A stretch of 63,650 nucleotides of DNA, filler included, from Candidatus Woesearchaeota archaeon (lineage in GTDB: Archaea; Nanobdellota; Nanobdellia; Woesearchaeales; B72-G16), in assembly GCA_003650545.1 (NCBI GenBank). It is 3 parts of 3 records of this genome, joined end to end, with 100 filler letters (N's around TTAATTAATTAA, not from the genome) between each part and the next. Parts side by side here need not be neighbours in the genome. Positions count along the whole stretch, not along the records: positions 1 to 25,033 come from QMQO01000019.1; 2 more parts are not named here. One strand, given 5' to 3'. The position numbers and the translations under genes are program-made. Positions 1,834 through 59,985 of this stretch are shown here, in pieces. Numbering within the stretch: position 1 is the stretch's first letter; every line of letters begins with the position of its first letter. The notes under the pieces are model-generated. The model saw nothing but the letters and a program-made list of their open reading frames with translations. It made no database searches and had not been told where the DNA came from.

Positions 1834-3099
1834 ATGGAGATAAAGATTCTAGGAGCTGCAAGAGAAGTTGGTAGAAGCTGTATTGAGCTCTGCACAAAAG
1901 AGTTCAGAGCATTACTCGATGCAGGGATTAAACTCGAGATTGCAGGACCAGAATATCCTGTAGAAATAAGCAACATTGGATTGATAGATGCTGTTTTTTT
2001 GAGTCATGCGCATCTCGACCACTCGGGAGCATTGCCTTTGTTTTTCCATCGCGGGTTAAGTTGTGGTGTGTTGTGTACTGCAGAAACCGCATTGCTAACA
2101 AAACTATTGTTAAAAGATGCGCATAAGATTGAGGTTGCTGAGCACCATCACCCCGGCTATGGCAAGGAAGATATAAGGCGTGTTGTTAGTCATATTGAAA
2201 AGGTAAGGTACAATGAAAAGAAGAAACTGAAAACAGTTTCCTATGAATTTATAGACGCAGGTCACATTCCGGGCAGTAGCATGGTTATGCTTGAGGTAGA
2301 AGGAAAAAGGTTGCTTTATACTGGTGATTTTAACACAGTCGATACTAACTTAATCAATGGCTTTAAGGAAAGATTGGAAGCAGATGTCATGATCATAGAA
2401 TCAACCTATGGTGCTGAGAAACATCCTAACCGAGATAAAGAAGAAGAAGCTTTCCTGAATAAGATTGAAGAAGTGGTTAATGCTGGGGGCAGTGTGATAA
2501 TTGCTGCTTTCGCTATTGGAAGAGCACAAGAAGTGTTGCTGATGTTACAGAAGCGAAGGTTTAAAGTGCCAATATACATGGACGGGATGGCTGTCAAGGC
2601 TACTGACTTCATATTGGCTCACCCTGTTCTGCTTTCAAAACCAAAAGAATTAGAAAAAGCTTACAACAGAATCAATATTGTTAAAGGTAGCCGCGAGAGA
2701 AAGCAGGTATTGAACAAGCAGGCAATCGTGATCACAACCAGCGGGATGATAACTGGCGGCCCTGTAATAGAATATATGAAGCATATTGCATCGAGAAAAG
2801 ATTGTGCATTGATGATGACAGGATATCAAACAATAGGAAGTGGAGGTCTGCAAATATTGGAAACTGGTTTTATAGATCTAGATGGAGAACGCACCAAGGT
2901 TGAGTGCTTTTATAAGAAGTATGTATTCAGTGCACATGCCGGCCAGCAGGGGTTACAATGGATGATTAAAACTGTTAGACCTAAAATTTTGATAATTAAT
3001 CATGGTCAGGATTATCATTGTAGTGCTTTAGCTCAGTTTGCAAATCAATATTGTAAAAAGGTTTATGTTCCAAGATTGGGTGACGTTATTACTGTATAA
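1834..3099 (+). CDS. MBL-fold beta-CASP metallo-hydrolase/ribonuclease (aCPSF2-like)
   Basis: LGAAREVGRSC, SHAHLDHSG, AGHIPGS, YTGD, ESTYG, FSAHAG motifs; no KH domains. Confidence 0.9.
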   Translation: MEIKILGAAREVGRSCIELCTKEFRALLDAGIKLEIAGPEYPVEISNIGLIDAVFLSHAHLDHSGALPLFFHRGLSCGVLCTAETALLTKLLLKDAHKIEVAEHHHPGYGKEDIRRVVSHIEKVRYNEKKKLKTVSYEFIDAGHIPGSSMVMLEVEGKRLLYTGDFNTVDTNLINGFKERLEADVMIIESTYGAEKHPNRDKEEEAFLNKIEEVVNAGGSVIIAAFAIGRAQEVLLMLQKRRFKVPIYMDGMAVKATDFILAHPVLLSKPKELEKAYNRINIVKGSRERKQVLNKQAIVITTSGMITGGPVIEYMKHIASRKDCALMMTGYQTIGSGGLQILETGFIDLDGERTKVECFYKKYVFSAHAGQQGLQWMIKTVRPKILIINHGQDYHCSALAQFANQYCKKVYVPRLGDVITV

Positions 3100-3162
3100 G
3101 ATGGCTGTGATGAATACTTATAAGTGAAATACTGTATAAGTGGAACACTGTATAAGGTGAAC
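3091..3162. repeat. Degenerate ~16-bp tandem repeat (ACTGTATAAG core) starting across the stop codon at 3097-3099
   Basis: ACTGTATAAG at 3091, 3131, 3147; variant ACTTATAAG at 3116. Confidence 0.75.
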
Positions 3163-3166
3163 ATGT

Positions 3167-3454
3167 ATGAACGCAAGAGAGGTAATAAAAGCTTTGGACT
3201 CTTTTGATTATTACGAACTGAAAAAACTAGAAAAAGAACTTGATAATGGTAGTTTCAGGAGAAGGTTGGAGAAAAATATAAAAAAGTTTGAAGACGGGAA
3301 AAAGATTTGTGTTACTTGTGGCAGTTCTTTAAATGACAAGAAGTTTTCTTTGGTAATTGAATATCGCGGTATGAAAAAGACTGCCGAGTTCTGTGCAATT
3401 GATTGTCTTGAGTATTTCTTGGCTAAGATGAAAAAGGTTGTGAAGATTGACTAA
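3167..3454 (+). CDS. Small hypothetical protein with putative Zn-binding (TRASH-like) motif
   Basis: CVTCG...EFCAIDC; AAGGTGA SD-like motif upstream. Confidence 0.7.
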   Translation: MNAREVIKALDSFDYYELKKLEKELDNGSFRRRLEKNIKKFEDGKKICVTCGSSLNDKKFSLVIEYRGMKKTAEFCAIDCLEYFLAKMKKVVKID

Positions 3455-3648
3455 ATTCAATTTTTAATAGTTTAACCTGGCTAAAAGCTCAAACAGATTG
3501 TTCTTGGCATTGGTAAGAATAAAAAAACTAGTTTAGTCAGATAACTATAAGGGTGGATTCATAAAAAAATAAAGATTCAAAAATTATGTTACTAAATTTG
3601 ATTTACCTTAGAATTAAGAATTGATTTAGAACTAAGAGTCTAATCAAA

Positions 3649-3757
3649 TTTTTAATAAGAGTTTTTAATAAAAGTTTTTAATAAGAGCTTTTAATAAGAG
3701 TTTCAATAAGAGTTTTTAATAAAAGTTTCAATAAGAGTTTTTAATTTTTAATAAGGG
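3649..3757. repeat. 12-13-bp minisatellite (TTTTTAATAAGAG variants, about 8-9 units)
   Basis: Units at 3649, 3662, 3675, 3688, 3701, 3713, 3726 and partial units after; no spacers; between convergent genes. Confidence 0.9.
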
Positions 3758-3759
3758 CT

Positions 3760-4914
3760 CTAACCAACTATCTTTTTATTAACATAGTACAAAGCAACTA
3801 TCAGCATACTCTCTGCCCAGCTTAGTGGTACGTTTTCATTAAACTTAGGTGAATTAGAAAAATATAGCTCAGGTTCGCCTATCTCTGTTACTGTAGCAAG
3901 AGCCTTCTTTAGATACTTTTCTGCCTTTCCCTTTTTGCCAAGTTTTTGATAAATAATTGCTAACCATGACAAGCCAAAAGTCCACTCTGCTTCCTCTGAA
4001 TAACCATCTGGATTCTTATTATAATAGTGATCATTCTTATAGCGAATTACACCACGCTTCTTCAAAAGATGATATTCAATATTCGTCAAGATTTCGTCGC
4101 GTTCTTTCGGATTAACAACATTATATGGATAAATCAAAGACAAGAGTGCTAGATCGACAAACTTACTTCTACTTTCCCTTGGTAACATATCCCTCAAGAT
4201 GCGTTTGCCATTGCTAATAAGCCACTCCGGAACATCTATCTGTGGAATGTTATCTTTAACCATCTCCAAACCGGCAACACAAGCACCAACACTGCTTGCA
4301 TGTATCTCCTCGTCCTCTTCCCACATACCTGAGTCTGGATCGTGCCAATACTCCAGTGTTTTGAGATAGTCAACTAGTTTTTGTATTAGTTTATAATCTC
4401 GTTCGGTCTTTAAAATCCTGCGACCTAATTTGACAAGTTCACCAACCTTGAAAAGAATTGCGCCAATAGAATCATTTTGTTTATTGCCCCACTCTTCCCA
4501 GAATTCATCAAATGTTTCTGGATGGTAGCGAGGGTGAATATATTGAAAAGGATGTTCTGGTTTTTTCTGGATCGCATAGTCAATTTTATATTCATGTTTC
4601 TCAAATATTTTAAGTATTGCCTCGTATGTACTCTCTACAGTATCCCAGTCGCCTATGACTTCAAACGCTAAGCAGGTGTAGAAGTTATCTCTGAGCCATG
4701 CTTTGTCATATCCTGTTTCTACTTCTTTTCTAGATGCTGCAAACAATCCTGACTTGTATTGCAAGTTTTTGAGAATCTTCAGGTGGTGTTTTATTAGCTG
4801 TTGATAGTTGACAGGTTGCAGTTTGCTCTTTGACTTTTTCTTTTTTAGTTTGAGTTCTTTTCGCTTTACTTCTTTTTTCAGTTTTTTTACCTTTTGTTTT
4901 AGTTTGCTCGACAT
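3760..4914 (-). CDS. Glycoside hydrolase family 15-like protein (glucoamylase / phosphorylase-kinase-like)
   Basis: GYDKAWLRDN, DSGMWEE, PLSWAES motifs; start placed at ATG 4914, just after the upstream stop (track start 4932). Confidence 0.8.
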   Translation of the reverse strand: MSSKLKQKVKKLKKEVKRKELKLKKKKSKSKLQPVNYQQLIKHHLKILKNLQYKSGLFAASRKEVETGYDKAWLRDNFYTCLAFEVIGDWDTVESTYEAILKIFEKHEYKIDYAIQKKPEHPFQYIHPRYHPETFDEFWEEWGNKQNDSIGAILFKVGELVKLGRRILKTERDYKLIQKLVDYLKTLEYWHDPDSGMWEEDEEIHASSVGACVAGLEMVKDNIPQIDVPEWLISNGKRILRDMLPRESRSKFVDLALLSLIYPYNVVNPKERDEILTNIEYHLLKKRGVIRYKNDHYYNKNPDGYSEEAEWTFGLSWLAIIYQKLGKKGKAEKYLKKALATVTEIGEPELYFSNSPKFNENVPLSWAESMLIVALYYVNKKIVG

Positions 4915-14804: not shown

Positions 14805-15164
14805 ATGGTTAATATAGTTGAGTTGGACGAGGAAAACTTTCGTGAAGAAGTAATAGGAGCAAAAAGGCCTGTTGTTGTTGATTGGTACGCAAATTGGTGT
14901 ATGCCTTGCATGCAGATAAAACCTATTTTTGAAGAGATTGCTTCTGAATTCCGCGGCAGAGTTAAGTTCTGCAAGATTAATGTTGAAGAGAATAAGAAAA
15001 TCGCAGGATATTACGATATTCGCGGTATTCCTTGCATAATAATTTTTAAAGATGGTAAGGAGATTGGCAGAATAATTGGTTTTGAAGGCAAAGAATTATT
15101 AAAACAGAAAATTGAGAGTCATCTAGGAGACATTGCTGGAGCTTACGAGCCTGAACATGATTGA
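14805..15164 (+). CDS. trxA: Thioredoxin
   Basis: VVDWYANWCMPC, IRGIPC, thioredoxin length. Confidence 0.92.
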   Translation: MVNIVELDEENFREEVIGAKRPVVVDWYANWCMPCMQIKPIFEEIASEFRGRVKFCKINVEENKKIAGYYDIRGIPCIIIFKDGKEIGRIIGFEGKELLKQKIESHLGDIAGAYEPEHD

Positions 15165-15331
15165 TTGTTTGATTAATTGTTAAGCAGCTCTTAAGCAGAT
15201 TACTTCTTTAGGACTTTTATTTAATTTCTTTATTATTCTTTCTTAGTTTTTCTAACAGATAATCTTAAAGTTTAAAGTTTAATGACAATTAAAAAATGAC
15301 TTAAGATTTTTAAAATTAAGGATTTTAAAAT

Positions 15332-15353
15332 TAGGGTCTATAGTTAGACCCTA
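15332..15353. repeat. Perfect 9-bp hairpin
   Basis: TAGGGTCTA-TAGT-TAGACCCTA. Confidence 0.7.
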
Positions 15354-15363
15354 TAGTCTTTAA

Positions 15364-15488
15364 ATATAACGCTAAAATTACAAAAGCTAGCCCAAGTTCG
15401 CTGGCTTAGCTTCGCACGCAGCAACCCTGCATCATTAATGTTTATTTCAACAGTTTGCATTGTTACGTAATTTTAGCTAAGGTTAACG
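15364..15488 (+). other. attC-like / long stem-loop element
   Basis: ATATAAC + GCTAAAATTAC (15371-15381) ... GTAATTTTAGC (15467-15477) + TAAG + GTTAACG; perfect 11-bp arms with internal hairpins. Confidence 0.35.
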
Positions 15489-15789
15489 TGGTTTTTTTGG
15501 GAATAGATTTGGAATTTAGCTATTTTGGTGGATGCCGATCATCCAAATCCTGTACCAACACAGGTTATTCGGCGGGCTTCACCTGTGTTTGTCCCTTACT
15601 GCTATTGGTGTTGTTAATGTTCTTGTTTTTGTAATATGAATGATTTATTAATAAGTATTGTATATAGAGTACGACAACTATGTACTATAATATATCTTCT
15701 GGCATGATAATTTCTAGCTTAAATTGTGAAAATTATAGATATGACTTAAATATGATATTACCTAAGTAAAATATTAAAACAATAAAAAA

Positions 15790-15804
15790 CAAAAGATTTA
15801 AAAA
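15790..15804 (+). promoter_or_regulatory. BRE/TATA promoter of the leader-cysK-cysS unit
   Basis: CAAAAGA-TTTAAAAA; TATA starts 30 nt before ATG 15827, matching the 30-32 nt spacing at valS, serS, relA, rps12 and trmB. Confidence 0.65.
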
Positions 15805-15826
15805 CTCTTAATAAACACTATATCTT

Positions 15827-15853
15827 ATGTTAAAGGCAGTTTGTTGTTGCTAG
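15827..15853 (+). CDS. Putative leaderless poly-Cys leader peptide MLKAVCCC
   Basis: ATG TTA AAG GCA GTT TGT TGT TGC TAG; at the predicted transcription start, ending 71 nt upstream of the cysteine synthase ATG. Confidence 0.6.
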   Translation: MLKAVCCC

Positions 15854-15924
15854 AGTTCTTTCATTTACCTATTTTAACCAATAAGCTTTTATTTTATACA
15901 TAAAATCTATATAGAGGTTACAAA

Positions 15925-16815
15925 ATGAACCAGAACATACTCAAACTCATTGGGAACACACCCCTTGTCAGAATAAATAGACTAAATCAAAACCTTAAAG
16001 TGGATGTTTATGCTAAACTTGAATATTTGAACCCTGGCGGAAGTGTGAAGGATAGAATTGCCCTTTCAATGATAGAAGCTGCAGAGCGTACAGGAAAGCT
16101 TAAGAAGAAGACAATACTAGAAGCCACAAGCGGGAATACTGGCATTGGCTTGGCAATGGTAGCAGCTGTAAAAGGCTATAAGGCTTTATTCACAATGTCC
16201 GAAGCTGTTAGCCAGGAACGTAGAGATGTTCTTAAAGCTTTTGGAGCAAATACTCTTCTAACACCTAAAGATAAAGGAACAGACGGTGCAATAGAGAAAG
16301 CTTATCAACTTGCTAGAGAAAAGCCAGATGAATATTACCTAGTGGATCAATATAATAACCCTTATAACTGGAAGGCTCACTACAGAACAACTGGCGAGGA
16401 AATCTGGAAACAAACTAATGGAAAAATTACTATGTTTGTTGCAGGTATAGGCACTACAGGAACATTAATAGGAACTGGCAAAAAACTTAAGGAATATAAT
16501 CCAGAAATCAAAGTCATAGGCGTTGAACCTTTTCTAGGCCACAACATTCAAGGACTGAAGAATCTAAAAGAAGCCTATAAACCCGGTATCTGGGACAAAA
16601 CCATTCCAGACGAAATAATCAACATAAGGGATGAAGATGCATATGAAATGGCAAGAAAACTAGCTAAAGAAGAAGGGCTACTAGTAGGAATAAGTTCTGG
16701 GGCTGCGATGCATATTGCTTTGCAAAAGGCTAAAGAGTTGAGAGAAGGCCTTATTGTTGTAATATTGCCTGACTCTGGAGAAAGATATTTAAGTACAGAA
16801 TTATTCAGAGCTTAA
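15925..16815 (+). CDS. cysK: Cysteine synthase (O-acetylserine sulfhydrylase, CysK/CysM family)
   Basis: IGNTPLV, NPGGSVKDR (PLP Lys), EATSGNTG, GIGTTGT, GISSGA, DSGERYLS; GAGG SD. Confidence 0.93.
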   Translation: MNQNILKLIGNTPLVRINRLNQNLKVDVYAKLEYLNPGGSVKDRIALSMIEAAERTGKLKKKTILEATSGNTGIGLAMVAAVKGYKALFTMSEAVSQERRDVLKAFGANTLLTPKDKGTDGAIEKAYQLAREKPDEYYLVDQYNNPYNWKAHYRTTGEEIWKQTNGKITMFVAGIGTTGTLIGTGKKLKEYNPEIKVIGVEPFLGHNIQGLKNLKEAYKPGIWDKTIPDEIINIRDEDAYEMARKLAKEEGLLVGISSGAAMHIALQKAKELREGLIVVILPDSGERYLSTELFRA

Positions 16816-16816
16816 G

Positions 16817-18217
16817 ATGACAATAAGATTTTTTAACACTCTATCAAGGAAAAAAGAAGAATTCAAGCCACTCAAAAATGGTAAGGTTGGCCTCTACACA
16901 TGTGGCCCAACTGTATATGGATTTGTCCATATTGGAAATCTAAGGACTTTTATGTTTGAAGATTTGCTTAGAAGATTTTTAGAATATAAAGGCTTTGAAG
17001 TAAAGCATGTGATGAATCTTACAGATATAGATGATAAAACAATACGCGATTCTGGAAAAGAGGGAATCAGCTTGAAGGATTTTACAGAACGCTACACTGC
17101 CGAATTCTATAAGGATATTGATACCTTAAAGATTGAAAGGGCAACTGTTTATCCTAAAGCAACAGAATATGTTGATGATATGATAGAGATGACTAGAACA
17201 TTAGTTAAAAAAGGTTTTGCTTATGTGAAATCTGGCTCTGTTTACTATGACATATCTAAGTTTAAAGGTTATGGTAAACTATCCCACATCAAGGTAGAAG
17301 AACTGAAAGCTGGTGCTCGCGTGGATGTAGATGAATATGATAAAGATAGCCCTCAAGATTTTGCATTGATGAAGAAGTCTACCCTAGACGAGTTGAAACG
17401 AGGAATATTTTATGAGACAGAGTGGGGAAATGTAAGACCTGGTTGGCATATCGAGTGTTCTGTGATGAGTATTAAAAATCTAGGAGAGACTTTTGATATT
17501 CACACAGGAGGTGTTGATAACATCTTTCCGCATCATGAAAACGAAATTGCTCAATCTGAAGCTGCAACTGGGAAGAAATTTGTTAACTACTGGCTTCACA
17601 GTGAGCATTTGATAGTTGATGGTAAGAAGATGAGCAAATCCCTTGGCAATTTTTATACCCTGCGTGATCTACTTGTTAAAGGGTTCAAACCTGATGCAAT
17701 AAGATTTGTTCTGCTGGCAACGCATTATAGACAGCAACTCAACTTTACTTTTGAGAAGGCAAAGGATGCTGAACGCATTATTCAACGCTTTCATGATTTT
17801 ATGATAAAACTGGAGGAAGCTGATGGAGAAGAAAATGCAAATGTACTAGCCATTATAGAGAAGCATAAGAATAAGTTCGACGAAAGCTTAGAAGATGACT
17901 TAAATATATCAGAAGCTTTAGCCGCTGTGTTTGAGTTGATGAATGAAATCAATAAGCTGATGGCAGTAAGAAAATTGAGTAAAAAGAATGCAGAAGATGT
18001 AAAAAAAACAATGCTTGAGTTTGATCGTATCTTAGATGTGATTAAACCAGAAAAAGAAAAAGTTCCTATAGAGGTGCAGGAGCTTGCTAGGTTGCGACAG
18101 AAAACTCGCGAGATGAAAAAATGGGATGAAGCTGACGACTTAAGACGGAAAATTTTAGAGCATGGTTGGCTTATAGAAGATAAATCCGATGGTAGTTTTA
18201 GGCTGAAGAAGGTTTAA
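16817..18217 (+). CDS. cysS: Cysteine--tRNA ligase
   Basis: YTCGPTVY, HIGN, RPGWHIEC, FPHHENE, KMSKS. Confidence 0.97.
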   Translation: MTIRFFNTLSRKKEEFKPLKNGKVGLYTCGPTVYGFVHIGNLRTFMFEDLLRRFLEYKGFEVKHVMNLTDIDDKTIRDSGKEGISLKDFTERYTAEFYKDIDTLKIERATVYPKATEYVDDMIEMTRTLVKKGFAYVKSGSVYYDISKFKGYGKLSHIKVEELKAGARVDVDEYDKDSPQDFALMKKSTLDELKRGIFYETEWGNVRPGWHIECSVMSIKNLGETFDIHTGGVDNIFPHHENEIAQSEAATGKKFVNYWLHSEHLIVDGKKMSKSLGNFYTLRDLLVKGFKPDAIRFVLLATHYRQQLNFTFEKAKDAERIIQRFHDFMIKLEEADGEENANVLAIIEKHKNKFDESLEDDLNISEALAAVFELMNEINKLMAVRKLSKKNAEDVKKTMLEFDRILDVIKPEKEKVPIEVQELARLRQKTREMKKWDEADDLRRKILEHGWLIEDKSDGSFRLKKV

Positions 18218-29882: not shown

Positions 29883-30053
29883 TCCCCAGCTCAAATTTTC
29901 GGCATTCTATAAATATTCTGTTAATCGCTACGCACAAGTGATTACTAGTTCTCTACCAGAGTTATTTTTTTGTGTTTACTATTCAAAAGGTTGCAACCTC
30001 CTAACCAAAAGCTTTTAAATACCGCTTATTATTTAAATCATGGACAAGGGAAA

Positions 30054-32132
30054 ATGGCACTGAAATACAAAACAACAAGAGATATCAAAATACCTAAAAA
30101 CATAATCGATCAAGTCATCGGACAAGATGATGCAGTTGCAGTTATAAAGAAAGCTGCAAAACAAAGAAGACATGTTCTCTTAATAGGAGAACCGGGTACT
30201 GGTAAAAGTATGCTTGGTCTTGGCCTAGCTGAATTATTGCCAAAGGAAAAGCTTGTTGATGTTCTCTCGTTCTTTAATCCGAATGATGAAAACCAACCTT
30301 TGATAAGGACTGTTGAAGCTGGCAAAGGCCGCAACCTCGTTGCTAAGTCAAAACTACATGCGACAGGTGTTTTTCGTGGCTATAATTTCCTGTTATTCAT
30401 TCTTGTAATTATTGCTATGATTGCACCATGGTGGGGGTTTAACCATTATTCCAATATTCCTGGAGGAAATCTTCAGATTGGCGCTATCATGTTTGTTGCA
30501 TTATTCATGGGTGGCATGATTTTCTTGGCAGCATTCATATTATTCTTGAATCTTGGCAGGAAAGCAGGCATAAAGACAAATGCGCCAAAGTTAATAGTTG
30601 ATAACTTTGACAAAAAGAAAGTACCTTTCTATGATGCAACCGGGGCACATGCTGGAGCACTGTTGGGGGATGTACTTCACGATCCATTTCAGTGTTTCTT
30701 CCGTTCTCAAATGATAACAAAACTAACAGGCGGAAAGTTAATGAATGTAGAAATAAATAAAGAAATTAATGACTTATTCAACAATTCTAAAAATTTAGAA
30801 AAGAAAGATGGATACGAAGCAGTTTTTCTAAACAAGAACGATCTTGTGGTTCTAGGTGAATCACAAGGTTCAGTTTCGCCTGTTGATGTTTTATCAGCAA
30901 ACAGACATGATTACGAAGGCGAAATGATAAAACTGATGACTTCGGAAAACAAAGAACTAATAGTTACACCCAAACACAAAATAGCACTCTGGAAAAATGG
31001 GAAAATCGTTTATACTGAAGCTAGAGACATTAAAAATGGTGACACAGTTGTCTCAAAAGCTGAAGATATCATAATAGATGAAGACGATATAATTAATACA
31101 TTCAATAGAAAACAACAGAAACAATGTAAATTATACTATCAAAATTTAGATTCCCAACAGAAGAACAAAACCAGCAAGCACAAAAGAATTGAAGTGTCTA
31201 TAGACCAAAAAATAAGAAAAGCTCGATGGTGGCATACTAGAAATACACCTGATCCAGTTCAAATGATCAATTGGTTAAAGAAAAGAAAGTTACTACCTCT
31301 AAAAATAGATAACATAAAACTGCATCTTATCGCAAGGGTTTTGGGGGCCATGTTTAGCAATAACGGAGGAGTAACTGAAAATCTAAATGAGATTTTTTTA
31401 TCAGGCTCTGATAAGGGAGCGATAGTGAATTTTAAAAAGGACATCGAAACTATTTTTAATCTAAATAAAGATGAAAAGTCACAGATAATTGAAGATAAAA
31501 ACCATAAAAACCATGAGCATTCATGGTACTATCAAAATACTAATAAGAGTATGATCAGATTTTTTTTAGCTCTTGGTTTGCCAATCAGTAATAAAAAAAA
31601 TACTGTGCTAAATGTTCCGCAGTGGATTAAATCCAAAGGTGAACTAGAAGACGAATTCTATGGGTCTTTTTTAGGAAGAGAATTATCATCATCGCATAAT
31701 ATAGATAAAAATGAATCAGTAGAATTGAAAGTAGAAATACCTTCTGAAAATCGAAAGATGTTTTTATACCAACTTGCAAACTACTTGCAGAGAAAAGGTA
31801 TCGAGAGCAATACCACGTATATAAAAAATATAAAAAGAGTATCTGAAAAAAGGCTGTCTGAAGATTTAGTATGTAGATTACGGATAAGTACTAAATTTGA
31901 TAATGTTATCAAATTTTTAATGAAAATAACTCTATCTTACTGTGACTACAAAACAGAAAGATTATTCTTAGCATTAAGAAAACAGGCAAAAGATAAAAAG
32001 AAAAAATATTATTCCTTAATAAATCAAGGCTATGGGGCAGAAAATGTGATGAGATTATTGAAGTTAACTCCCAATTCACTCTATTTGTTGTTAAACTACT
32101 TAGAAGAAAAAAGTGAGGGAGCTACAACTTGA
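30054..32132 (+). CDS. lonB: LonB protease N-terminal part fused to N-intein with degenerate LAGLIDADG endonuclease
   Basis: DQVIGQD, Walker A GEPGTGKS, two TMs, [17 protein letters not shown] then intein Cys1 at 30693; start moved to ATG 30054. Confidence 0.88.
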
Positions 32133-32245
32133 AACTCACAAAACAAACAATAACTGATGTAAAGAAGATTCATTATAAAGGGAAATTATATAATGTTACA
32201 ACTAGCTCAGGCAATATCATCGTTAATGGTGTTTTATGTTCAAAC
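30693..32245 (+). mobile_element. Intein in lonB, split into a 479-aa N part (30693-32129) and a 39-aa C part (32129-32245)
   Basis: DPFQ/CFF N-junction, block [10 protein letters not shown], block F LYNVTT, C-junction [14 protein letters not shown]; same site as Thermococcales Lon inteins. Confidence 0.85.
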
Positions 32246-33490
32246 TCAGGTGGATTAGGAACACCTGCGCATGAGCGGGTTGTTGCCGGTATGATACACA
32301 AAGCAAATATGGGTGTTCTATTCATTGACGAAATTGCTACACTGCAACCCGCAACTCAGCAGGAACTATTAACAGCGCTGCAAGAAGGCAAATATTCTAT
32401 CACAGGACAGTCCGAACGTTCGGCAGGAGCTATGGTTAGGACAGAACCTGTGCCATGTAACTTCATTCTTGTTGCTGCAGGTAATGTTGAAACAGTGCAA
32501 CGTATGCACCCTGCACTGCGTTCTAGAATTAGAGGGTATGGCTACGAGGTTTTTATGTCTGATACGATGAAGGATACACCGGCTAACAGGGATAAGATTG
32601 TTGTGCTGGTTGCTCAGGAAGTTGCCAAGGATAAGAAAATTCCGCATTTTTCGAAAGAAGCTGTTGGCGGCATAATTGAAGAAGCCAGAAGAAGAGCTAA
32701 CAGAAAAGGTCATCTTACATTAAGGCTGCGTGAGTTAGGTGGTCTTATAAGAGCAGCAGGTGATATTGCTGTTGAGCAAAAAGCAAAGGTTGTAGAACTT
32801 AAGCATATAAAGCAAGCATTAAAGATTGCTCGCACATTAGAGCAACAGATGGCTGACAAATCCATCGAGCGGAAAAAAGAGTACGAGGTCATTGTTACAA
32901 CAGGAAAAATTATTGGTAGAGTTAATGGTCTTGCAGTGATGGGATCTGGTGAAACATTCTCAGGGATCATACTGCCAATTGAATCCGAAGTTGTTCCAGG
33001 TGGTAAAGAACGTGCAATTATTGCAACTGGCAAGCTTGGCGAGATTGCGAAAGAAGCAGTGAAGAATGTTTCAGCCATTATTAAAAAATATTTTGGAATG
33101 GACATCAAAGAAAAGTTTGATATTTATGTACAGTTCTTGCAGACTTATGAAGGCGTGGAGGGTGACTCTGCCAGCATAGCCGTTGCAACATCAATTATTT
33201 CAGCTTTAAAAAAAATACCAGTAAGGCAAGATACAGCAATGACAGGCTCGCTATCTGTAAGAGGAGAGGTCTTGCCGGTTGGTGGTATTAGCTACAAAAT
33301 TGAAGCTGCTATAGACGCAGGCATGAAACGTGTTATAGTGCCAAAATCGAATGTGCAAGATATTGTGATTGAGAAAACCAGATTAGAAAGGATCAAGGTT
33401 ATTCCTGTTACTAATATTTCTGAAGTTTTGAAGGAAGTACTTGATTGGACAGGTAAAAAGGATGTTCTTAAGGTGATTATGAAAAAATAA
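32129..33490 (+). CDS. lonB: C-intein fused to LonB C-terminal part (Walker B, sensor region, protease domain)
   Basis: TTG start overlapping the TGA stop, [27 protein letters not shown], catalytic EGDSAS and KIEAA. Confidence 0.88.
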
Positions 33491-40802: not shown

Positions 40803-42704
40803 ATGGATGACGATCTAAAATTCATAGTAGATGTAGCTAGCGAGTACAACCCTCGTTTTAAGAAAGAACTAGTTATAAAAGCATACAATTTTGCTAAGGA
40901 AGCCCATAAAGGTCAAAAACGCATCTCAGGAGAAGATTATTTCGTGCATCCTGTTGAGACTGCAAAAATATTGCTTGAGTTAAAAGCCGATTCATATACT
41001 TTATGTGCAGCGCTGCTACATGATGTGATTGAAGAAACATCTGTAACAAAAGAAGAAGTAGTTAAGATGTTTGGTGACGAAATTGCAGGACTGGTAGAAG
41101 GTCTAACTCATATAGAAAAAATACACTTCAAGAATAAGGAAGACTATACTGCAGAAAATCTCAGGAAGATTTTGCTTGCCACTTCTAAGGATATTCGTAT
41201 AATCTTGATAAGACTATCTGACAGGCTACATAACATGCGGACTTTGAAGTATCTACGCCCAGATCAACAAAAAAGAATAGCACAAGAAACATTGACTATA
41301 TACGCGCCTATAGCTTACAAACTAGGTTTGATGAAGATTAAAGGAGACCTAGAAGATCTTTCATTAAGGTTCTTAAAGCCAGAGGTTTATAAAAAAATCA
41401 CTGAGAGAATCAAAGAGAAGAGAGAAGCACGTGAGAAATATGCAGAGAGAGTTATGGAGTTTCTTAAAGAGAAACTAAAAGAAGAAAATATCCCTGCAAA
41501 GGTTACAGGAAGAGCCAAATATTTCTACAGCATCTATAGAAAGATGACTAAAAGGAATGTGCCTATTGACGAGATCTATGATTTAATCGGCATAAGAATC
41601 GTGACACAGACCATTCCACAATGCTATGCTGCTCTAGGTCTTGTACACAAAATCTGGAGACCTATGCCAGGAAAGTTTAAGGATTATATTTCTGTGCCAA
41701 AAGCAAATGGTTATCAGTCTCTGCACACAACCGTTGTAACAGAAGATGGTCGTGTATTAGAAGTACAGATAAGGACAGAAGAGATGGACCTAATTGCAGA
41801 AGAGGGTATTGCAGCACATTGGCGCTACACAGGCAGAGAGCGTGACAAAAGATTCGACCAAAAAATTAACTGGCTCAAGCAGCTTCTCTATTGGAAATCA
41901 AGTGAGGACGCAAAAGAATTTATAGAAACCTTTAAGTTTGATCTCTTTGAGAAAGAGATTGTTGTGTTTACACCAAAAGGTGATCCAATCTCTCTGCCTG
42001 AAGAGTCTACGCCAGTTGATTTCGCATTTGAGATACACACTAACCTCGGCAAGCAGTGTTCAAAGGCAAAGGTGAATGGTAATATTGTTCCTCTCAATTA
42101 TATCTTGAAAAGTGGGGATATTGTAGAGATAGTAACATCAAACAAGGCAAAACCTAGCAGACAGTGGCTTACGTTTGTTAAAACGAGCAAGGCAAGACAG
42201 AGAATAAAACAAGAACTTGGCATAGAATCTGTAAGATCGTCAAAGCTAAAAGAAAGAGAAGCACAAGGTGTCCTCAGAAACATAATTGTTGAAAGCAGAA
42301 GGCCTGCTAAACTTTCAAAATGCTGCTCGCCAGAGTATGGTGATGAGATCAAGGCTTTCTTAACAAAGGATGGAAAGGTCACAATACATAAAGCTGATTG
42401 CGAGAATATTCACACATTGGAGAAGAAAAAGGAAATCGGAGTAAGGTGGAGAGTCATACCAAAACTTGATTCTACTGATATCATAGTAGTTGTCAGGGAT
42501 AGGGTTGGTATGCTTTCAAATATTTTGACTGTTATTTCTAAAATGGGCATACATATAACTTCTGTTAAGTCAGAGATGAGAGGCGGCAGATTCAAATTAG
42601 TTATTGGCTTAAAGACTAAGGAGAAGTCTGTTGTTAAGCAGATCCTAGATAATCTGCGTGTTCTAAAAGACGTGATTGACGCAAAGATTTCTGACCTACC
42701 TTAA
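40803..42704 (+). CDS. Long RelA/SpoT homologue (HD, synthetase, TGS, ACT domains)
   Basis: H.GQKR.SGE.Y..HP, ALLHDVIE, DRLHNMRT, KFKDY, YQSLHT, EVQIRT, G.AAHW.Y, VFTPKG/TPVDFAF, KCCSP, ACT-like DRVGML. Confidence 0.93.
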   Translation: MDDDLKFIVDVASEYNPRFKKELVIKAYNFAKEAHKGQKRISGEDYFVHPVETAKILLELKADSYTLCAALLHDVIEETSVTKEEVVKMFGDEIAGLVEGLTHIEKIHFKNKEDYTAENLRKILLATSKDIRIILIRLSDRLHNMRTLKYLRPDQQKRIAQETLTIYAPIAYKLGLMKIKGDLEDLSLRFLKPEVYKKITERIKEKREAREKYAERVMEFLKEKLKEENIPAKVTGRAKYFYSIYRKMTKRNVPIDEIYDLIGIRIVTQTIPQCYAALGLVHKIWRPMPGKFKDYISVPKANGYQSLHTTVVTEDGRVLEVQIRTEEMDLIAEEGIAAHWRYTGRERDKRFDQKINWLKQLLYWKSSEDAKEFIETFKFDLFEKEIVVFTPKGDPISLPEESTPVDFAFEIHTNLGKQCSKAKVNGNIVPLNYILKSGDIVEIVTSNKAKPSRQWLTFVKTSKARQRIKQELGIESVRSSKLKEREAQGVLRNIIVESRRPAKLSKCCSPEYGDEIKAFLTKDGKVTIHKADCENIHTLEKKKEIGVRWRVIPKLDSTDIIVVVRDRVGMLSNILTVISKMGIHITSVKSEMRGGRFKLVIGLKTKEKSVVKQILDNLRVLKDVIDAKISDLP

Positions 42705-44872: not shown

Positions 44873-46816
<1,944 letters not shown>

Positions 46817-51575: not shown

Positions 51576-53465
51576 CTACTTAATCCTAAAAACCTCCAGA
51601 TTTCTTGGTGCAGAAGTTTCGATTCTGTTTTGTTTATGTATGGAACTAGCTAGATCTAAACATCTAGAGCTTTCGCCATGCATTACTATAACCCTTTTTG
51701 GTTTAGGATCGCATTTGTACACATAACTCATCAATTGCTTTCTGTCAGAATGGCCTGTAACTTCTAACTTATGTATCTCCATCTTGATTTCAACAACTTC
51801 TTGCTTAGTGCCAGATTTAAAAATTATCTCGCGAGCACCACGTTGTATTCTTTGCCCGAGAGAACCTTCGCCTTGATAACAGGTAAACACTAACGAATTC
51901 TTAGGGTTATCAGCAAGATGTTTCAGATACTCAACAGACGGACCGCCAACAAGCATACCACTAGTTGCCATAATCACGCAAGGACCATGCTCTTCTACAA
52001 TTTGCATTCTTTCTTTTTGTGAGCCAACACGTTTAAATGCAGGATTCAGAAATGGATTTTGATCTTGGTGGAAGATTTGTTTTCTAACTGTTGCATTCAG
52101 GTATTCTGGATACGCAGTATGTATGGCTGTCATATCCCACACCATACCATCAATATAAACAGGGACCTCTGGAATCTCTTTATTACGGATCATTTCTTCG
52201 ACCATCACCATAATCTCTTGACTTCTTCCAGATCCTAATGTAGGCATCAGAATCTTACCGCCACGTTTGATTGTATCCTTAATGATTTTTTTAAGCAATT
52301 CATCAGCTTCTTTTTGATTTGGCAACACATTTTCTTTACCACCATATGTTGCTTCTATAATCAAAGTCTCTGCTCTAGGGAATTTTGTGTTAGCCGGATC
52401 TAGTAAAGCTGTTCTGCCATACTTCATATCACCAGAGTAAACTAAGTTGTGCAGACCATTGCCAATATGTAAGTGTATCAAAGAAGAACCGATAATATGG
52501 CCAGCATTATACAACGTTAGCCTAACATCAGGAGTTATATCTGTGACCTCACCATAATCCAAGCAGATTGTGTGTTTAACCATTTCTTTTATGTCTTCTG
52601 CAGTAAATATTGGCTCTTTACCCTCAGAGTGCATAATCTTAACATAGTCCAACAAAGATAGAGCCATAATATCCCTAGTAGGAGCTGTACAATAAACAGG
52701 ACCGCGAAAGCCAAACTTAAATAAATAAGGAATAAAACCACAATGATCCAAATGAGAATGAGTCACAATAACAGCATCTAACTCTTTTATGTTAAATTCT
52801 GGCACCTCCAGATATGGATACATTTTATCCGATGAAGCAACATTAACACCGCAATCTAATATAACCCTAGATTCTGGTGTTTGCAGGAACAAACAAGACC
52901 TTCCAACCTGTCTTCCCCCTCCTAGTACACTAACTCGAATCCATTCTTGCTTTTTTTCACGGATCCAACCGTCATAAATACGGTGGCCAGTCTTATTCAA
53001 AAATTTCCTTCTATATTCAGAATTCAGATACAAAACAGAGCGTACATCCTCAATTATCTGGCTTCTAATTGCAGGCGTCCTTCTTATTAGTGGAACCCAT
53101 AATGTATTTTCTCTTATCCCCCTTAATATTGCACCCTGTTTTCCAATAGCAAGCCCAGGTTTCTTTGCTTCTATTATGACCCTAGACCGTTGCTCATCAA
53201 AGATTATCTGTGCAACTTCGGCTTCTTCTGGAATCATATCTTTAATAAGTTTTTCTGCTTTTTCCTTTGGCATTGTTATGCTAGGATCTGGCCTTAACTC
53301 TACCCTTTTCTTTATATCATCAACTATCTTTTTGATCAGACCTTCATTATTCAGGAAAAAACTTTTATCTTTAGTATAGAGCACAATGTTTGCTCCTTCA
53401 AACACAGCATCAGATACTTTATCCTTAGGCAAATATTTTAAGATCTCTGCTATAATATCAGACAT
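51576..53465 (-). CDS. KH-domain beta-CASP ribonuclease aCPSF1 (FttA)
   Basis: FEGANIVLYT, KPGLAIGKQG KH motif, GGGRQVGRSC, THSHLDH, AGHIIGS, GHSDR; follows psmB. Confidence 0.93.
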   Translation of the reverse strand: MSDIIAEILKYLPKDKVSDAVFEGANIVLYTKDKSFFLNNEGLIKKIVDDIKKRVELRPDPSITMPKEKAEKLIKDMIPEEAEVAQIIFDEQRSRVIIEAKKPGLAIGKQGAILRGIRENTLWVPLIRRTPAIRSQIIEDVRSVLYLNSEYRRKFLNKTGHRIYDGWIREKKQEWIRVSVLGGGRQVGRSCLFLQTPESRVILDCGVNVASSDKMYPYLEVPEFNIKELDAVIVTHSHLDHCGFIPYLFKFGFRGPVYCTAPTRDIMALSLLDYVKIMHSEGKEPIFTAEDIKEMVKHTICLDYGEVTDITPDVRLTLYNAGHIIGSSLIHLHIGNGLHNLVYSGDMKYGRTALLDPANTKFPRAETLIIEATYGGKENVLPNQKEADELLKKIIKDTIKRGGKILMPTLGSGRSQEIMVMVEEMIRNKEIPEVPVYIDGMVWDMTAIHTAYPEYLNATVRKQIFHQDQNPFLNPAFKRVGSQKERMQIVEEHGPCVIMATSGMLVGGPSVEYLKHLADNPKNSLVFTCYQGEGSLGQRIQRGAREIIFKSGTKQEVVEIKMEIHKLEVTGHSDRKQLMSYVYKCDPKPKRVIVMHGESSRCLDLASSIHKQNRIETSAPRNLEVFRIK

Positions 53466-57358: not shown

Positions 57359-57480
57359 CAGGGAAGAGTTGATTAATAATAATGATTAATAATAATTTAT
57401 ACTCTGTGGCCTGTAATAATTCCTGTACAATAATCTTTATAAACAACCTAAATCATCACTTCTTTTTGGGGGTTGATAGA

Positions 57481-59985
57481 TTGAAAATCACACCTGCTGT
57501 TAAACAGTATATAGAAAATAAACAGCAGTATCCAGACTGTATTCTATTTTTTAGAATGGGAGACTTCTACGAGATGTTTTTTGAAGACGCCAAAATAGTT
57601 TCTAGAGAACTAAACATCACACTAACCAGTAGAGGTAAGGACAAGGTGCCACTTGCAGGTGTCCCACATCATTCTGTGCAGCCTTATCTTGCAAAATTAG
57701 TTAAAAAAGGCTATAAGGTGGCTATTGTAGAACAATTGGAAGATCCTAGGTTTGCAAAAGGTGTTGTCAAACGAGGAGTTGTAAGGATAGTAACACCGGG
57801 AACCCTAATCGACGATCTAATGCTGAATGAAAATGTTAATAATTATTTGATGGCTATCGCTAACAATGATAAATGTTACGGAGCAGCTATAGTCGACATC
57901 TCTACAGGCGAATTTCTTGTGACAGAAGTAAACCACATCGAAAAACTCAAAAATGAGATTACCAGATTTAATCCTGCTGAAATTTTAGTTCCAAGCTTTA
58001 TTGCAAACTTATTCAAAGGATGGCATGTTAATCCTTACGAAGAACGTTTTTTTTACAAGCCGATTGCTTATACAAAACTGAAAGAGTTCTTTGAGGTGGC
58101 AAACCTAGAAGGATTTGGAATAGAAAAACAAGAACTAGCAATAAGTGCAGCTGGCGCCTTAATAAATTATCTTGAAGAGACTCAGAAAACATCGTTAAAG
58201 CAGATCAATAATATAAAATATTTCTCAACAGAGGACCACATGATATTAGATGCGGCAACAATTAGAAATTTAGAGTTGATTAAGAGCATCATAGACAACT
58301 CAACAAAAAATTCTCTGCTTGGCGTATTGGACAAAACACTGACACCAATGGGTTCTCGTTTATTGAAGCAGTGGTTGCTTCGTCCATTATTAGACAAAAA
58401 AAAAATAAATACAAGACTAAGTGCAGTTGAAGAACTCACAGCTAACTTACTGATGAAGGAAGAACTACAAGATGGGTTAAAGCAGATGTACGATATTGAA
58501 AGATTGATAGGAAAAATTGCTTATGGTAATGCAAATGCACGCGATTTATTGGCATTAAAGAAATCTTTGCTTGTGTTGCCTCTAATTAAAAAGGTTCTAG
58601 AAGAAAGTAATTCTGCATTGTTACAAGAAATATCTAAAATTAAAACTCAAAACAAAATAGTAGAATTAATAGAGAAAGCAATCAAGGAAGACCCGGCTGC
58701 AACTATAAAAGAAGGAAACATCATTAAAAAAAACTATAATAAAGACCTTGATGTGTTAAGAGAACTAAAAACAAATAGCAAGAAGTTTATAGCTGATCTG
58801 CAGAAACATGAGATAAAACGTACAGGAATAAAGTCGTTGAAGATCAAATACAATAAAGTTTTTGGTTATTTTATAGAAGTGACAAAACCAAATTTACATC
58901 TTGTTCCAAGCAATTATATCAGGAAACAAACCCAAGTTAATAGCGAACGTTTTATAACTGAAGAATTGAAAGAGCACGAAAGCAAAATATTGAATGCAGA
59001 AGAGAAAATTGTCAACCTGGAGTATGAATTATTCTGTAATATAATTAATCAGATTAATGAGCATACAAAAGAGATTCAAAAAGCTGCACATGAAATTGCT
59101 AAACTAGATGTGCTTGTTAGCTTTGCAAATGTCTCTCTGGTTAATCGTTACACTAAACCTGAGCTAAACAGCAATAACGAGATTAACATCAAGGCCGGAA
59201 GGCACCCTGTACTAGAGCAAACTGAGCAAATATATATTCCAAATGACTGTTTGATGGACGAAAATCTTAATATGATGATCATAACAGGCCCAAATATGGC
59301 AGGAAAAAGTTCTTACATGAGACAAGTCGCTTTAATACAACTAATGGCACAGATTGGCTGCTTTGTTCCAGCCGATTACGCAAGCTTGGATATTGTTGAT
59401 AGAATCTTTACAAGGGTTGGTGCGCATGACGATCTCGCAAGTGGGCAAAGCACATTTATGGTTGAGATGAATGAAACTGCTAACATTCTAAATAATGCGA
59501 CTAAAAAAAGCTTGGTTATCTTAGATGAGATCGGACGGGGAACTAGCACATTTGACGGTGTTAGCATTGCATGGAGCGTTGCAGAGTATATCAATAAAGA
59601 AATTAAAGCGAAAACACTGTTTGCAACGCATTATCACGTATTAAATAAATTAGAAACCAAACTTAAGAGTGTAAAAAACTTTAACATAACTGTTGCAGAA
59701 GATGGGGACAAAATAGTATTTTTAAGGAAGATCATGCCAGGCGGAACTGATAAAAGCTATGGTGTACAGGTTGCTAAGCTTGCAGGTTTACCTGCTGACG
59801 TAATAGAAAGAGCAAAACAGATTCAATTTCAGTTGGAGGATGAAAATAAGATGAAAGATAAGGTCGTTGTGGAACGAACACTGGTTAACAAAACAAGAAC
59901 TTTAGACAAATTCGCTGGCACGCAAACAGACCAGAGAGAGTACGTATACAAAAAATTAAAGCAGAAAAACTTAGAGGATTGGTGA
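57481..59985 (+). CDS. mutS: DNA mismatch repair protein MutS
   Basis: FRMGDFYEMFFEDA, ITGPNMAGKS, STFMVEM, LDEIGRGTST, FATHYH, SYGVQVA; start moved to TTG 57481 after GGGGG. Confidence 0.96.
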   Translation: MKITPAVKQYIENKQQYPDCILFFRMGDFYEMFFEDAKIVSRELNITLTSRGKDKVPLAGVPHHSVQPYLAKLVKKGYKVAIVEQLEDPRFAKGVVKRGVVRIVTPGTLIDDLMLNENVNNYLMAIANNDKCYGAAIVDISTGEFLVTEVNHIEKLKNEITRFNPAEILVPSFIANLFKGWHVNPYEERFFYKPIAYTKLKEFFEVANLEGFGIEKQELAISAAGALINYLEETQKTSLKQINNIKYFSTEDHMILDAATIRNLELIKSIIDNSTKNSLLGVLDKTLTPMGSRLLKQWLLRPLLDKKKINTRLSAVEELTANLLMKEELQDGLKQMYDIERLIGKIAYGNANARDLLALKKSLLVLPLIKKVLEESNSALLQEISKIKTQNKIVELIEKAIKEDPAATIKEGNIIKKNYNKDLDVLRELKTNSKKFIADLQKHEIKRTGIKSLKIKYNKVFGYFIEVTKPNLHLVPSNYIRKQTQVNSERFITEELKEHESKILNAEEKIVNLEYELFCNIINQINEHTKEIQKAAHEIAKLDVLVSFANVSLVNRYTKPELNSNNEINIKAGRHPVLEQTEQIYIPNDCLMDENLNMMIITGPNMAGKSSYMRQVALIQLMAQIGCFVPADYASLDIVDRIFTRVGAHDDLASGQSTFMVEMNETANILNNATKKSLVILDEIGRGTSTFDGVSIAWSVAEYINKEIKAKTLFATHYHVLNKLETKLKSVKNFNITVAEDGDKIVFLRKIMPGGTDKSYGVQVAKLAGLPADVIERAKQIQFQLEDENKMKDKVVVERTLVNKTRTLDKFAGTQTDQREYVYKKLKQKNLEDW

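Follow-up and report, generated by a model that had tools for sequence, protein, structure and literature searches.

A polycysteine micro-ORF upstream of cysK-cysS in a woesearchaeal genome

The sequence analyzed here is a 63,650-nucleotide (nt) stretch of DNA, referred to as the window, that joins 3 parts of the genome of Candidatus Woesearchaeota archaeon (GCA_003650545.1). The locus of interest resides in the part derived from QMQO01000019.1 (positions 1-25,033) and comprises an eight-codon open reading frame (ORF), hereafter the micro-ORF, that ends in consecutive cysteine codons and is followed on the same strand by genes for cysteine synthase (cysK) and cysteinyl-tRNA synthetase (CysRS, encoded by cysS). 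The window has a G+C content of 34% and an archaeal gene content that includes ribosomal protein S3Ae, a proteasome subunit, LonB, Kae1/TsaD and FttA. The positions that an initial annotation of this DNA had assigned to the micro-ORF, to the start of its TATA box and to cysK proved exact (Table 1). When both strands of all 63,650 bases were searched, the micro-ORF emerged as the only ATG-initiated ORF of up to 30 codons containing three or more Cys codons in a row.

Matches to the consensus TTTAWAWA located 29-33 nt 5' of an ATG, with no accompanying Shine-Dalgarno (SD) sequence, were found at many genes of the window. The spacings that the initial annotation had listed for apparently leaderless genes were reproduced (valS 30 nt, the trmB-family gene 30, relA/spoT 31, rps12 31 and serS 32), and the 20789 and 7825 genes present spacings of 29 and 33 nt. 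Perfect TATA boxes number 77 on both strands, yielding 15 TATA-ATG pairings with the ATG 28-34 nt downstream; seven of these pairings begin long ORFs, six of which are called genes. The micro-ORF is among the few intergenic short ORFs at this distance from a TATA box and the only one of them that contains an amino-acid run. The purine-rich segment adjoining its TATA box, which resembles a transcription factor B recognition element (BRE), aligns with AAAACA / GAAAGA of six other archaeal leaders described below, positions A7 and A8 of the alignment (A1) being invariant.

Table 1. Features of the cysK-cysS leader region in the window, and leader ORFs of related loci. Peptides are written up to the stop codon.
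Feature	Position	Strand	Description
BRE-like CAAAAGA	15790..15796	+	Purine-rich; adjoins TATA box on 5' side
TATA box TTTAAAAA	15797..15804	+	Perfect match to window consensus TTTAWAWA; first base 30 nt before micro-ORF ATG
Putatively leaderless micro-ORF, MLKAVCCC	15827..15853	+	ATG TTA AAG GCA GTT TGT TGT TGC TAG
Three consecutive Cys codons (proposed sensor)	15842..15850	+	TGT TGT TGC, immediately 5' of stop
T-rich post-stop box AGTTCTTTCATTTACC	15854..15869	+	Conserved among archaeal leaders
Three T4 tracts (candidate archaeal termination signals)	15872-15875, 15887-15890, 15892-15895	+	At +19, +34 and +39 from stop
Second, weaker TATA-like site TTTATACA	15893..15900	+	1 mismatch; 32 nt before cysK ATG
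SD-like GAGGT	15914..15918	+	6 nt before cysK ATG
cysK/cysM-type cysteine synthase	15925..16815	+	TIGR01136, 394 bits (cutoff 344); PALP domain; ATG 71 nt past micro-ORF stop
cysS, cysteine--tRNA ligase	16817..18217	+	TIGR00435, 460 bits (cutoff 340); begins 2 nt after cysK end
FttA/aCPSF1 termination-factor gene	51576..53465	-	Pfam KH_TffA, Beta-Casp and RMMBL; outside locus
L002 leader, MINQICCCC			Nanoarchaeota single amplified genome (SAG), CysK 76%; stop to cysK 246 nt
L005 leader, MINGICCCR			Woesearchaeota; stop to cysK 137 nt
L034 leader, MKPNQCCCC			Woesearchaeota; stop to cysK 58 nt
L052 leader, MAIKIKSCCCC			Woesearchaeota; stop to cysK 96 nt
L010 leader, MTQRVFQTRKMNQVILVKAFCCC			Archaeon; ends VKAFCCC or VKAGCCC, as does L030; stop to cysK 108 nt
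L030 leader, MQQYNRNQKKYVIFLVKAGCCC			Labelled Methanosarcinales; stop to cysK 86 nt
L001 leader, MNYQISQNYQNCCCNFF			Bacterial label; stop to cysK 274 nt
L004 leader, MKDQIAPSLTACCDCCTSLKEGAGLV			Bacterial label; stop to cysK 79 nt

Polycysteine leader ORFs recur upstream of archaeal cysK

In order to identify related loci, genome contigs were scanned with CysK, which returned 282 matching stretches; 193 of these encode relatives, and the best 80 (L001-L080, 573 kb) were searched on both strands for leader ORFs, defined as above for the window. Among the 16 archaeal-labelled sequences, which include the window, such an ORF is present in seven cysK upstream regions (the window, L002, L005, L010, L030, L034 and L052, hereafter the seven archaeal leaders), versus none upstream of 141 other genes (Fisher P=2.8e-8). 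The 80 loci contain 14 ORFs with runs of at least three Cys codons, and seven of them lie just upstream of cysK on the same strand (binomial P=5e-9, taking the 300-nt zones upstream of cysK as the target fraction). Six of those seven ORFs fall within 300 nt of cysK; in the remaining locus, L001, the stop and the ATG lie 274 and 328 nt upstream. The initial annotation had proposed to check whether Cys-run micro-ORFs precede the orthologous operons of related DPANN genomes; six other archaeal-labelled loci, with TATA boxes at 30-33 nt, bear this out. These distributions indicate that the micro-ORF is more than a product of chance. The leader ORF is associated exclusively with cysK, tRNA-Cys and cysS. 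Under a looser criterion of at least two Cys codons, 9 of the 80 loci carry an ORF (background 0.029 per 300 nt), which adds only L009 and L043, neither of which was counted as a leader; the L009 ORF (3917-3937, MLCCLL) lies 54 nt before cysK on a Falkowbacteria contig. Two other sequences were likewise not counted, namely a GTG-started ORF in L033 (VPIRCCCISQS) and an ORF ~700 nt before cysK on the Bacteroidales contig L051 (1337-1393, MNKTIGISCVCCCSRLKN).

In the window and the six other archaeal loci alike, the short ORF precedes the downstream genes on their own strand, and the codon run matches the amino acid that these genes serve (cysteine synthase, CysRS and, in relatives, tRNA-Cys). 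A TTTAWAWA match with at most one mismatch precedes the leader ATG in all seven cases, at 30, 33, 31, 33, 31, 30 and 33 nt, which fits a leaderless start of the micro-ORF. In every case the ATG that this spacing fixes sets the frame in which the TGT repeat encodes Cys, and no stop intervenes, even though the ATG-to-Cys distance takes values of 15, 15, 15, 15, 21, 57 and 60 nt. The Cys runs of the relatives comprise 3-4 codons, and the stop adjoins the run in six of the seven leaders, following a single Arg codon in L005. The encoded peptides span 8 to 23 residues and their N-terminal residues vary, except for an (L)(V)KA-x motif shared by the window, L010 and L030. In a FastTree phylogeny of CysK, the two groups separated by the deepest split each have a support of 100 and both include loci with leaders, and leader presence needs at least three changes on the starred branches. 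The leader has therefore not simply hitch-hiked with one cysK lineage.

Adjacency of cysK and cysS is common to the window, L001-L005, L030, L052 and L054. A tRNA-Cys(GCA) gene is located between the leader and cysK in 3 of the 20 loci scanned for it (L002 3113-3184, L005 3893-3968 and L001 646-718), and no TATA-like site was found at promoter distance from the tRNA-Cys genes of L002 and L005. This arrangement suggests that the regulated unit consists of tRNA-Cys, cysteine synthase and CysRS.

The leader spacer contains a conserved T-rich box and little predicted structure

The segment that follows the micro-ORF stop is also conserved. All seven archaeal leaders present TTCT 0-3 nt from the stop, and TCATT occurs within the post-stop box of the window, L002, L005 and L034. 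An interpretation of the box as coding sequence reached by stop read-through was ruled out by its different reading frame in L005; since the frame is not constant, the box is best regarded as an RNA or DNA signal. Minus-strand mini-ORFs across the box were also considered, and a reading of the printed leaders showed that they are not conserved. Beyond the box, the U-rich tracts noted initially are present as three T4 tracts (Table 1). The first run of four or more T residues (T4+) starts 4-33 nt past the stop in all seven archaeal leaders, whose spacers together contain 16 T4+ versus 6 A4+ runs. Within the window, only 1 of 27 gene 3' flanks contains at least three T4+ runs in 70 nt, a density that the leader spacer reaches with three T4 in 71 nt.

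An SD-like purine run precedes cysK in all seven archaeal leaders, as read by eye (in L010, GGAG 14 nt before the ATG). No SD sequence was found at any of the eight clean leaderless genes of the window, and an SD-like 4-mer occurs in 3 of the 13 window genes with a TATA-like site at 29-34 nt, cysK being one of the three. The presence of an SD sequence before cysK and its absence from the clean leaderless genes argue that cysK is translated from a longer transcript. Co-transcription of the leader and cysK may be supported by the SD-like runs and by the lack of a promoter-distance TATA for the intervening tRNA genes, and is called into question by TATA-like sites close to cysK that are considered below.

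Five leaders (window, L034, L052, L005 and the bacterial L004) were folded and compared with dinucleotide shuffles. The archaeal leaders fold no better than their shuffles (z=+0.35 for the window, -0.84 for L034, +0.21 for L052 and +1.03 for L005), making a hairpin switch unlikely; the lack of excess structure argues both against a trp-type switch and against a stable SD-sequestering duplex like that of mycobacterial Ms5788A. Mutually exclusive terminator and antiterminator hairpins were not found in these four archaeal leaders, and the region 15100-16000 holds no terminator-like hairpin other than an unrelated one at 15332-15353. The window has no Rfam match at gathering score, and an Rfam scan of 15100-15960 returned only sub-threshold snoRNA/SmY noise, with an unrelated snoRNA model as the best match (E=0.33). 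A search by hand for base pairing of the ORF's 5' end with the segment past the box gave a convincing result solely in L034 (probability 1.0). The initial annotation had also suggested that TAACC (15875-15879) pairs with GGTTA (15916-15920), overlapping the cysK SD, and thereby controls SD access. Both sites exist, and the helix appears in the minimum free energy (MFE) structure of the window; however, it is absent from the centroid and has no consistent counterpart in the other printed leaders, and the fold score and inconsistent changes in SD exposure (see below) do not sustain a role in SD access.

Bacterial relatives carry leaders that resemble classical attenuators

Cys-rich leader regions also precede the most similar bacterial cysK-cysS pairs, which belong to the Candidate Phyla Radiation (CPR): L004 (2928-3077) and L001 (387-640). 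The bacterial origin of L004 is evident from its DnaX and DnaB genes, and its CysK groups with that of L001 beside the clade of the window. In L004, a terminator hairpin with a T tail is located 3' of the leader (3036-3057; 1 found versus 0.1 expected), the leader is more structured than its shuffles (z=-2.54), and a fold read by eye indicates that the 3' part of the ORF is able to pair with the 5' arm of the terminator. L001 presents a sigma-70-like promoter (11/12 positions) 26 nt before the leader ATG, and in its MFE structure, also read by eye, the 5' arm of a weak hairpin with a trailing U run has a potential pairing partner in the segment past the stop; this hairpin was not called by the pattern scan because it has too few G-C pairs. 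The leaders of L001 and L004 look like classical attenuators, whereas the archaeal leaders do not. The Cys codons are kept in the leader ORFs of these bacterial relatives, with different flanks, and the presence of this type of leader there suggests exchange of the cysK-cysS operon between domains.

A putative leaderless sensor of charged tRNA-Cys

The explanation that we favor, and regard as reasonably probable, is that the micro-ORF, translated without a leader, senses charged tRNA-Cys in cis and sets the expression of cysK-cysS from the transcript originating at the 15797 TATA box. The core of the initial annotation, a cysteine-sensing leader, is supported by the comparison of loci. The sequences establish the ORF, the geometry of its promoter, its conservation and its exclusive linkage to cysK, tRNA-Cys and cysS; translation of the micro-ORF, stalling, the sign of regulation and the termination step are components of this model that we infer. 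The transcript would start at or within a few bases of A15827, and a ribosome would load on the 5'-terminal AUG. With plentiful Cys-tRNA, it would pass the three Cys codons, reach the adjoining stop and depart; the naked U-rich leader RNA would then let the U-tract/FttA (aCPSF1) machinery halt RNA polymerase at 15872-15895. With scarce Cys-tRNA, the ribosome would stay on codons 6-8, where it would cover the ORF from end to end together with the T-rich box past its stop. Once the polymerase is at the first T4 tract, a ribosome on the last Cys codons would trail it by ~22-25 nt, and this proximity would hinder termination, allowing more polymerases to reach cysK. In the relatives, the tRNA-Cys gene would come under leader control as well. 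Higher expression at low Cys-tRNA is a sign of regulation assumed from physiology and bacterial precedents.

Premature termination by the U-tract/FttA machinery is proposed only tentatively, albeit as the most likely read-out of the sensor. In archaea, RNA polymerase is considered to terminate at U tracts in the absence of a hairpin, and the features expected of a U-tract/FttA terminator may be represented, in what is here AT-rich DNA, by the three T4 tracts and by an FttA gene elsewhere in the window, whose product is a candidate trans-acting effector of the leader. This read-out is favored because of the structure-free leader, its richness in T4 tracts, the FttA gene in the window, the U4 role of aCPSF1 and the analogy with Rho. 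In M. maripaludis, aCPSF1 has been described to bind U4 tracts, with tract number setting termination efficiency (PMC8716108), and mutual exclusion of the ribosome and FttA on the elongation complex has been hypothesised (PMC11616081).

Several observations weigh against the sensor model or its read-out. The seven leaders are related by descent, and the counts given above hence overstate their independence. The leader is absent from 9 of the 16 archaeal-labelled sequences (L003, L006, L007, L028, L031, L033, L054, L066 and L078), including L054, which shares the cysK-cysS-valS synteny. TGT repeats are low-complexity sequence, and synonymous change within them is minimal: the conserved Cys runs anticipated in the initial annotation are there, but the expected TGT/TGC variation is confined to the last Cys codon, which is TGC solely in the window and L034. 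The T tracts of the window are no longer than T4, in AT-rich DNA, and its gene 3' flanks, with a mean of 1.0 T4+ runs per 70 nt, are not clearly T-rich. A ribosome would be left behind as the polymerase advances, making protection of the later T tracts hard to explain. Finally, cysK may also, or only, use a promoter of its own, given the TATA-like site TTTATACA near its start, a possibility already raised in the initial annotation; three of the seven loci (window, L005 and L052) have such a site at a distance of 29-32 nt from the cysK ATG.

Alternative explanations

A translational read-out, in which departure of the ribosome allows the Cys tract and the post-stop box to pair with the SD and start of cysK and block initiation, and a stalled ribosome prevents this pairing, is unlikely. 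It is the mechanism shown for Ms5788A in mycobacteria (10.1101/834739). The predicted partner of the window's box, GUUCUUUCAUUU, is AAAUGAA..AGAAC, which spans the cysK AUG, with pair probabilities of 0.6-0.8, and the pairing is seen in both the MFE and centroid structures; pairing with the region of the cysK AUG is likewise predicted for the L010 and L030 boxes, and the box holds CAU, the complement of AUG. The near-zero z-scores of the four archaeal leaders contrast, however, with the "exceptionally stable" mycobacterial duplex, and no stable duplex between the Cys tract and the SD was found, the partners of the Cys tract differing between loci. When the ORF was masked to mimic a stalled ribosome, exposure of the -15..+3 region increased in 3 of 5 leaders (only from 0.38 to 0.43 in the window), stayed flat in 1 and decreased in 1. 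Moreover, a whole tRNA gene separates the box from cysK in L002 and L005, which rules out this action of the box in those two loci and makes blocking of the SD and start unlikely as its general function.

The sensor could alternatively act on transcript stability, with a ribosome on codons 6-8 covering the leaderless 5' end and shielding the transcript from 5'-3' exonucleases, so that starvation stabilises it, an option that we consider improbable. In Bacillus, the ermC mRNA is stabilised when ribosomes stall in its leader. Four of the seven leaders have their first Cys codon at codon 6 (nt 16-18), and a ribosome of textbook footprint size stalled there would reach the 5' terminus. Such a mechanism works with either tRNA or cysK next in the transcript, and the window encodes, at 1834-3099 (+), a second beta-CASP/RMMBL nuclease, without KH domains, of a family that presumably includes archaeal 5'-3' exonucleases. 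Yet 19-20 codons precede the Cys run in L010 and L030, and the conserved post-stop box and T tracts are not explained by protection of the 5' end.

More improbable still is a division of the locus into separate units, with cysK-cysS transcribed from its own promoter, TTTATACA at 15893, and the upstream unit inert or acting only through promoter interference. The T tracts past the ORF could then simply end a tiny transcript, and TATA-like sites are found close to cysK in the window and, among relatives, in L005 (31 nt, 1 mismatch), L052 (29 nt, perfect), L034 (36-39 nt) and L002 (46 nt, perfect). These proximal sites are nevertheless mostly imperfect matches in AT-rich DNA, and L030 has no proximal TATA-like site before cysK; the SD-like run upstream of cysK in all seven loci, set against none of the eight clean leaderless genes, points instead to a longer transcript, and the exclusive linkage of the Cys ORF to cysK and tRNA-Cys would remain unexplained.

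It is very improbable that the element operates as untranslated nucleic acid, that is, as a protein operator or as a T-box-like RNA whose UGU/UGC contacts the tRNA-Cys anticodon, with an incidental ORF. Nucleotide-level conservation of the Cys tract, the stop and the box, in which synonymous changes are few, is in keeping with this view, as is the adjoining tRNA-Cys gene of three relatives, but the element shows neither an Rfam family at gathering score nor excess structure, an in-frame ATG is maintained at leaderless distance in all seven loci despite varying ORF length, and the bacterial relatives retain Cys codons in a leader ORF with different flanks. Lastly, a small Cys-rich peptide with its own metal or redox function, or a chance ORF in a TGT simple repeat, is barely credible: a thioredoxin gene lies upstream and TGT repeats easily arise in AT-rich DNA, but only the Cys run is conserved among peptides of different lengths and unrelated N-termini, and a chance ORF is excluded by the enrichment tests.

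Relation to known attenuation systems

In bacteria, attenuation by leader ORFs is a textbook mechanism and relies on the coupling of transcription to translation. The proposed sensor resembles classical attenuators (trp, his, leu, thr, pheA) in that a leader ORF rich in codons for the end product controls the operon, and differs in lacking the alternative hairpins of that class, into which L004 fits, as does L001 by the terminator and antiterminator pairings read by eye from its MFE structure. In the E. coli tna operon (TnaC/Rho), a ribosome at the end of a short leader ORF masks RNA behind the stop that Rho needs. This masking is similar to what is proposed here; however, in TnaC it is the nascent peptide at the stop codon that detects free tryptophan, whereas hungry Cys codons would cause the stall in the archaeal leader and FttA, not Rho, would be the factor. 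Firmicutes T-box riboswitches control cysS/cysK-type genes by tRNA-Cys charging, but they are structured RNAs that bind tRNA directly, and no T-box or other Rfam match was obtained in the window.

The closest precedents are the mycobacterial polycysteine leaderless small ORFs (sORFs), Cys-responsive attenuators (Canestrari et al., 10.1101/834739) that the initial annotation had rightly invoked. Ms5788A and the Cys ribulon have a leaderless first cistron, as the promoter geometry suggests for the archaeal leaders, and share with them a Cys run near the 3' end of the ORF and a location before cysteine-metabolism genes, and the signal proposed for Ms5788A, ribosome dwell time on Cys codons, is likewise proposed here. 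The archaeal leaders also exhibit the at least two consecutive Cys codons by which the mycobacterial sORFs were defined (10.1101/834739). In contrast to the 90-nt ORF of Ms5788A, the archaeal ORF has 8-11 codons in five of seven cases and is preceded by an archaeal BRE/TATA promoter, and the targets include CysRS and, in relatives, tRNA-Cys. Ms5788A needs an SD-sequestering duplex, none of which is predicted in the archaeal leaders (z about 0), although the same source leaves open whether all of its loci need a stable duplex. The Cys leaders predicted in actinobacteria (Seliverstov et al. 2005, PMC1262725) are likewise short ORFs with Cys runs near the stop and no terminator hairpins, and the Rho termination model put forward for them parallels the FttA model considered here; they differ in being bacterial, GC-rich and Rho-based, and are presented as predictions only in that source.

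Among the top matches of a literature search, no title or abstract described a Cys or any other leader-ORF attenuator in archaea, in agreement with the initial annotation, which knew of no archaeal Cys-sensing leader. The sequences probably extend Cys-codon leader ORFs to another domain of life, in an apparently hairpin-free form. A more encompassing proposition, which we advance as speculative and rather doubtful, is that the hairpin-free, leaderless eight-codon sensor is the first archaeal ribosome-mediated amino-acid attenuator, gating FttA/U-tract termination through ribosome-polymerase proximity and co-regulating tRNA-Cys, cysteine synthase and CysRS in DPANN archaea, and that one regulatory logic was reassembled from domain-specific parts as the operon passed between domains. 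A Cys leader of this structure-free kind, conserved in archaea, would offer a very small natural test system for functional ribosome-RNA polymerase coupling in archaea and a test of whether FttA polices coupling as Rho does, as hypothesised in PMC11616081. It would also imply that in reduced DPANN genomes amino-acid supply is controlled in cis and no dedicated regulators are needed, point to a class of genes, 8-11 codons long, that escape gene callers and, through L001 and L004, allow a rare cross-domain comparison of one regulatory logic implemented with different parts.

Neighboring genes and other features of the window

Upstream of the leader, a thioredoxin gene (14805-15164) provides a thiol context, and the 660 nt that separate its end from the micro-ORF (15165-15826) contain no ORF of at least 60 codons. 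No similarity between this gap and any fetched locus was detected with tblastx or blastn, nor any RNA family match; the gap holds the hairpin at 15332-15353, with a 9-bp stem, and a G+C-richer patch at ~15400-15640. Downstream, cysS (+) and valS (-) are convergent with a 4-nt overlap (18214-18217), leaving no intergenic terminator, and a convergent valS is also seen in L002, L030 and L054. L003, which is sister to L005, carries a gene for a LAGLIDADG endonuclease (3153-3893) in place of the leader, and its tRNA-Cys gene (~3849-3970), missed by ARAGORN, carries two insertions of ~26 nt and 20 nt that are probably non-canonical introns.

No tRNA gene was found in the window. A full-length RelA/SpoT homologue (HD, RelA_SpoT, TGS and ACT domains; 40803-42704, +), apparently leaderless, is encoded in this DPANN archaeon and may be relevant to amino-acid starvation signalling. 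An ORF at 29970-32132 (+), which has a weak AAA/Mg-chelatase match besides an intein splicing domain, overlaps by 4 nt an ORF at 32129-33490 (+) with LonB lid and Lon protease domains, and the pair may correspond to an intein-bearing or split LonB. The same small archaeal genome fragment encodes bacterial-type MutS and MutL (57382-59985 and 61714-63480, +) and a gyrase B subunit (44873-46789, -).

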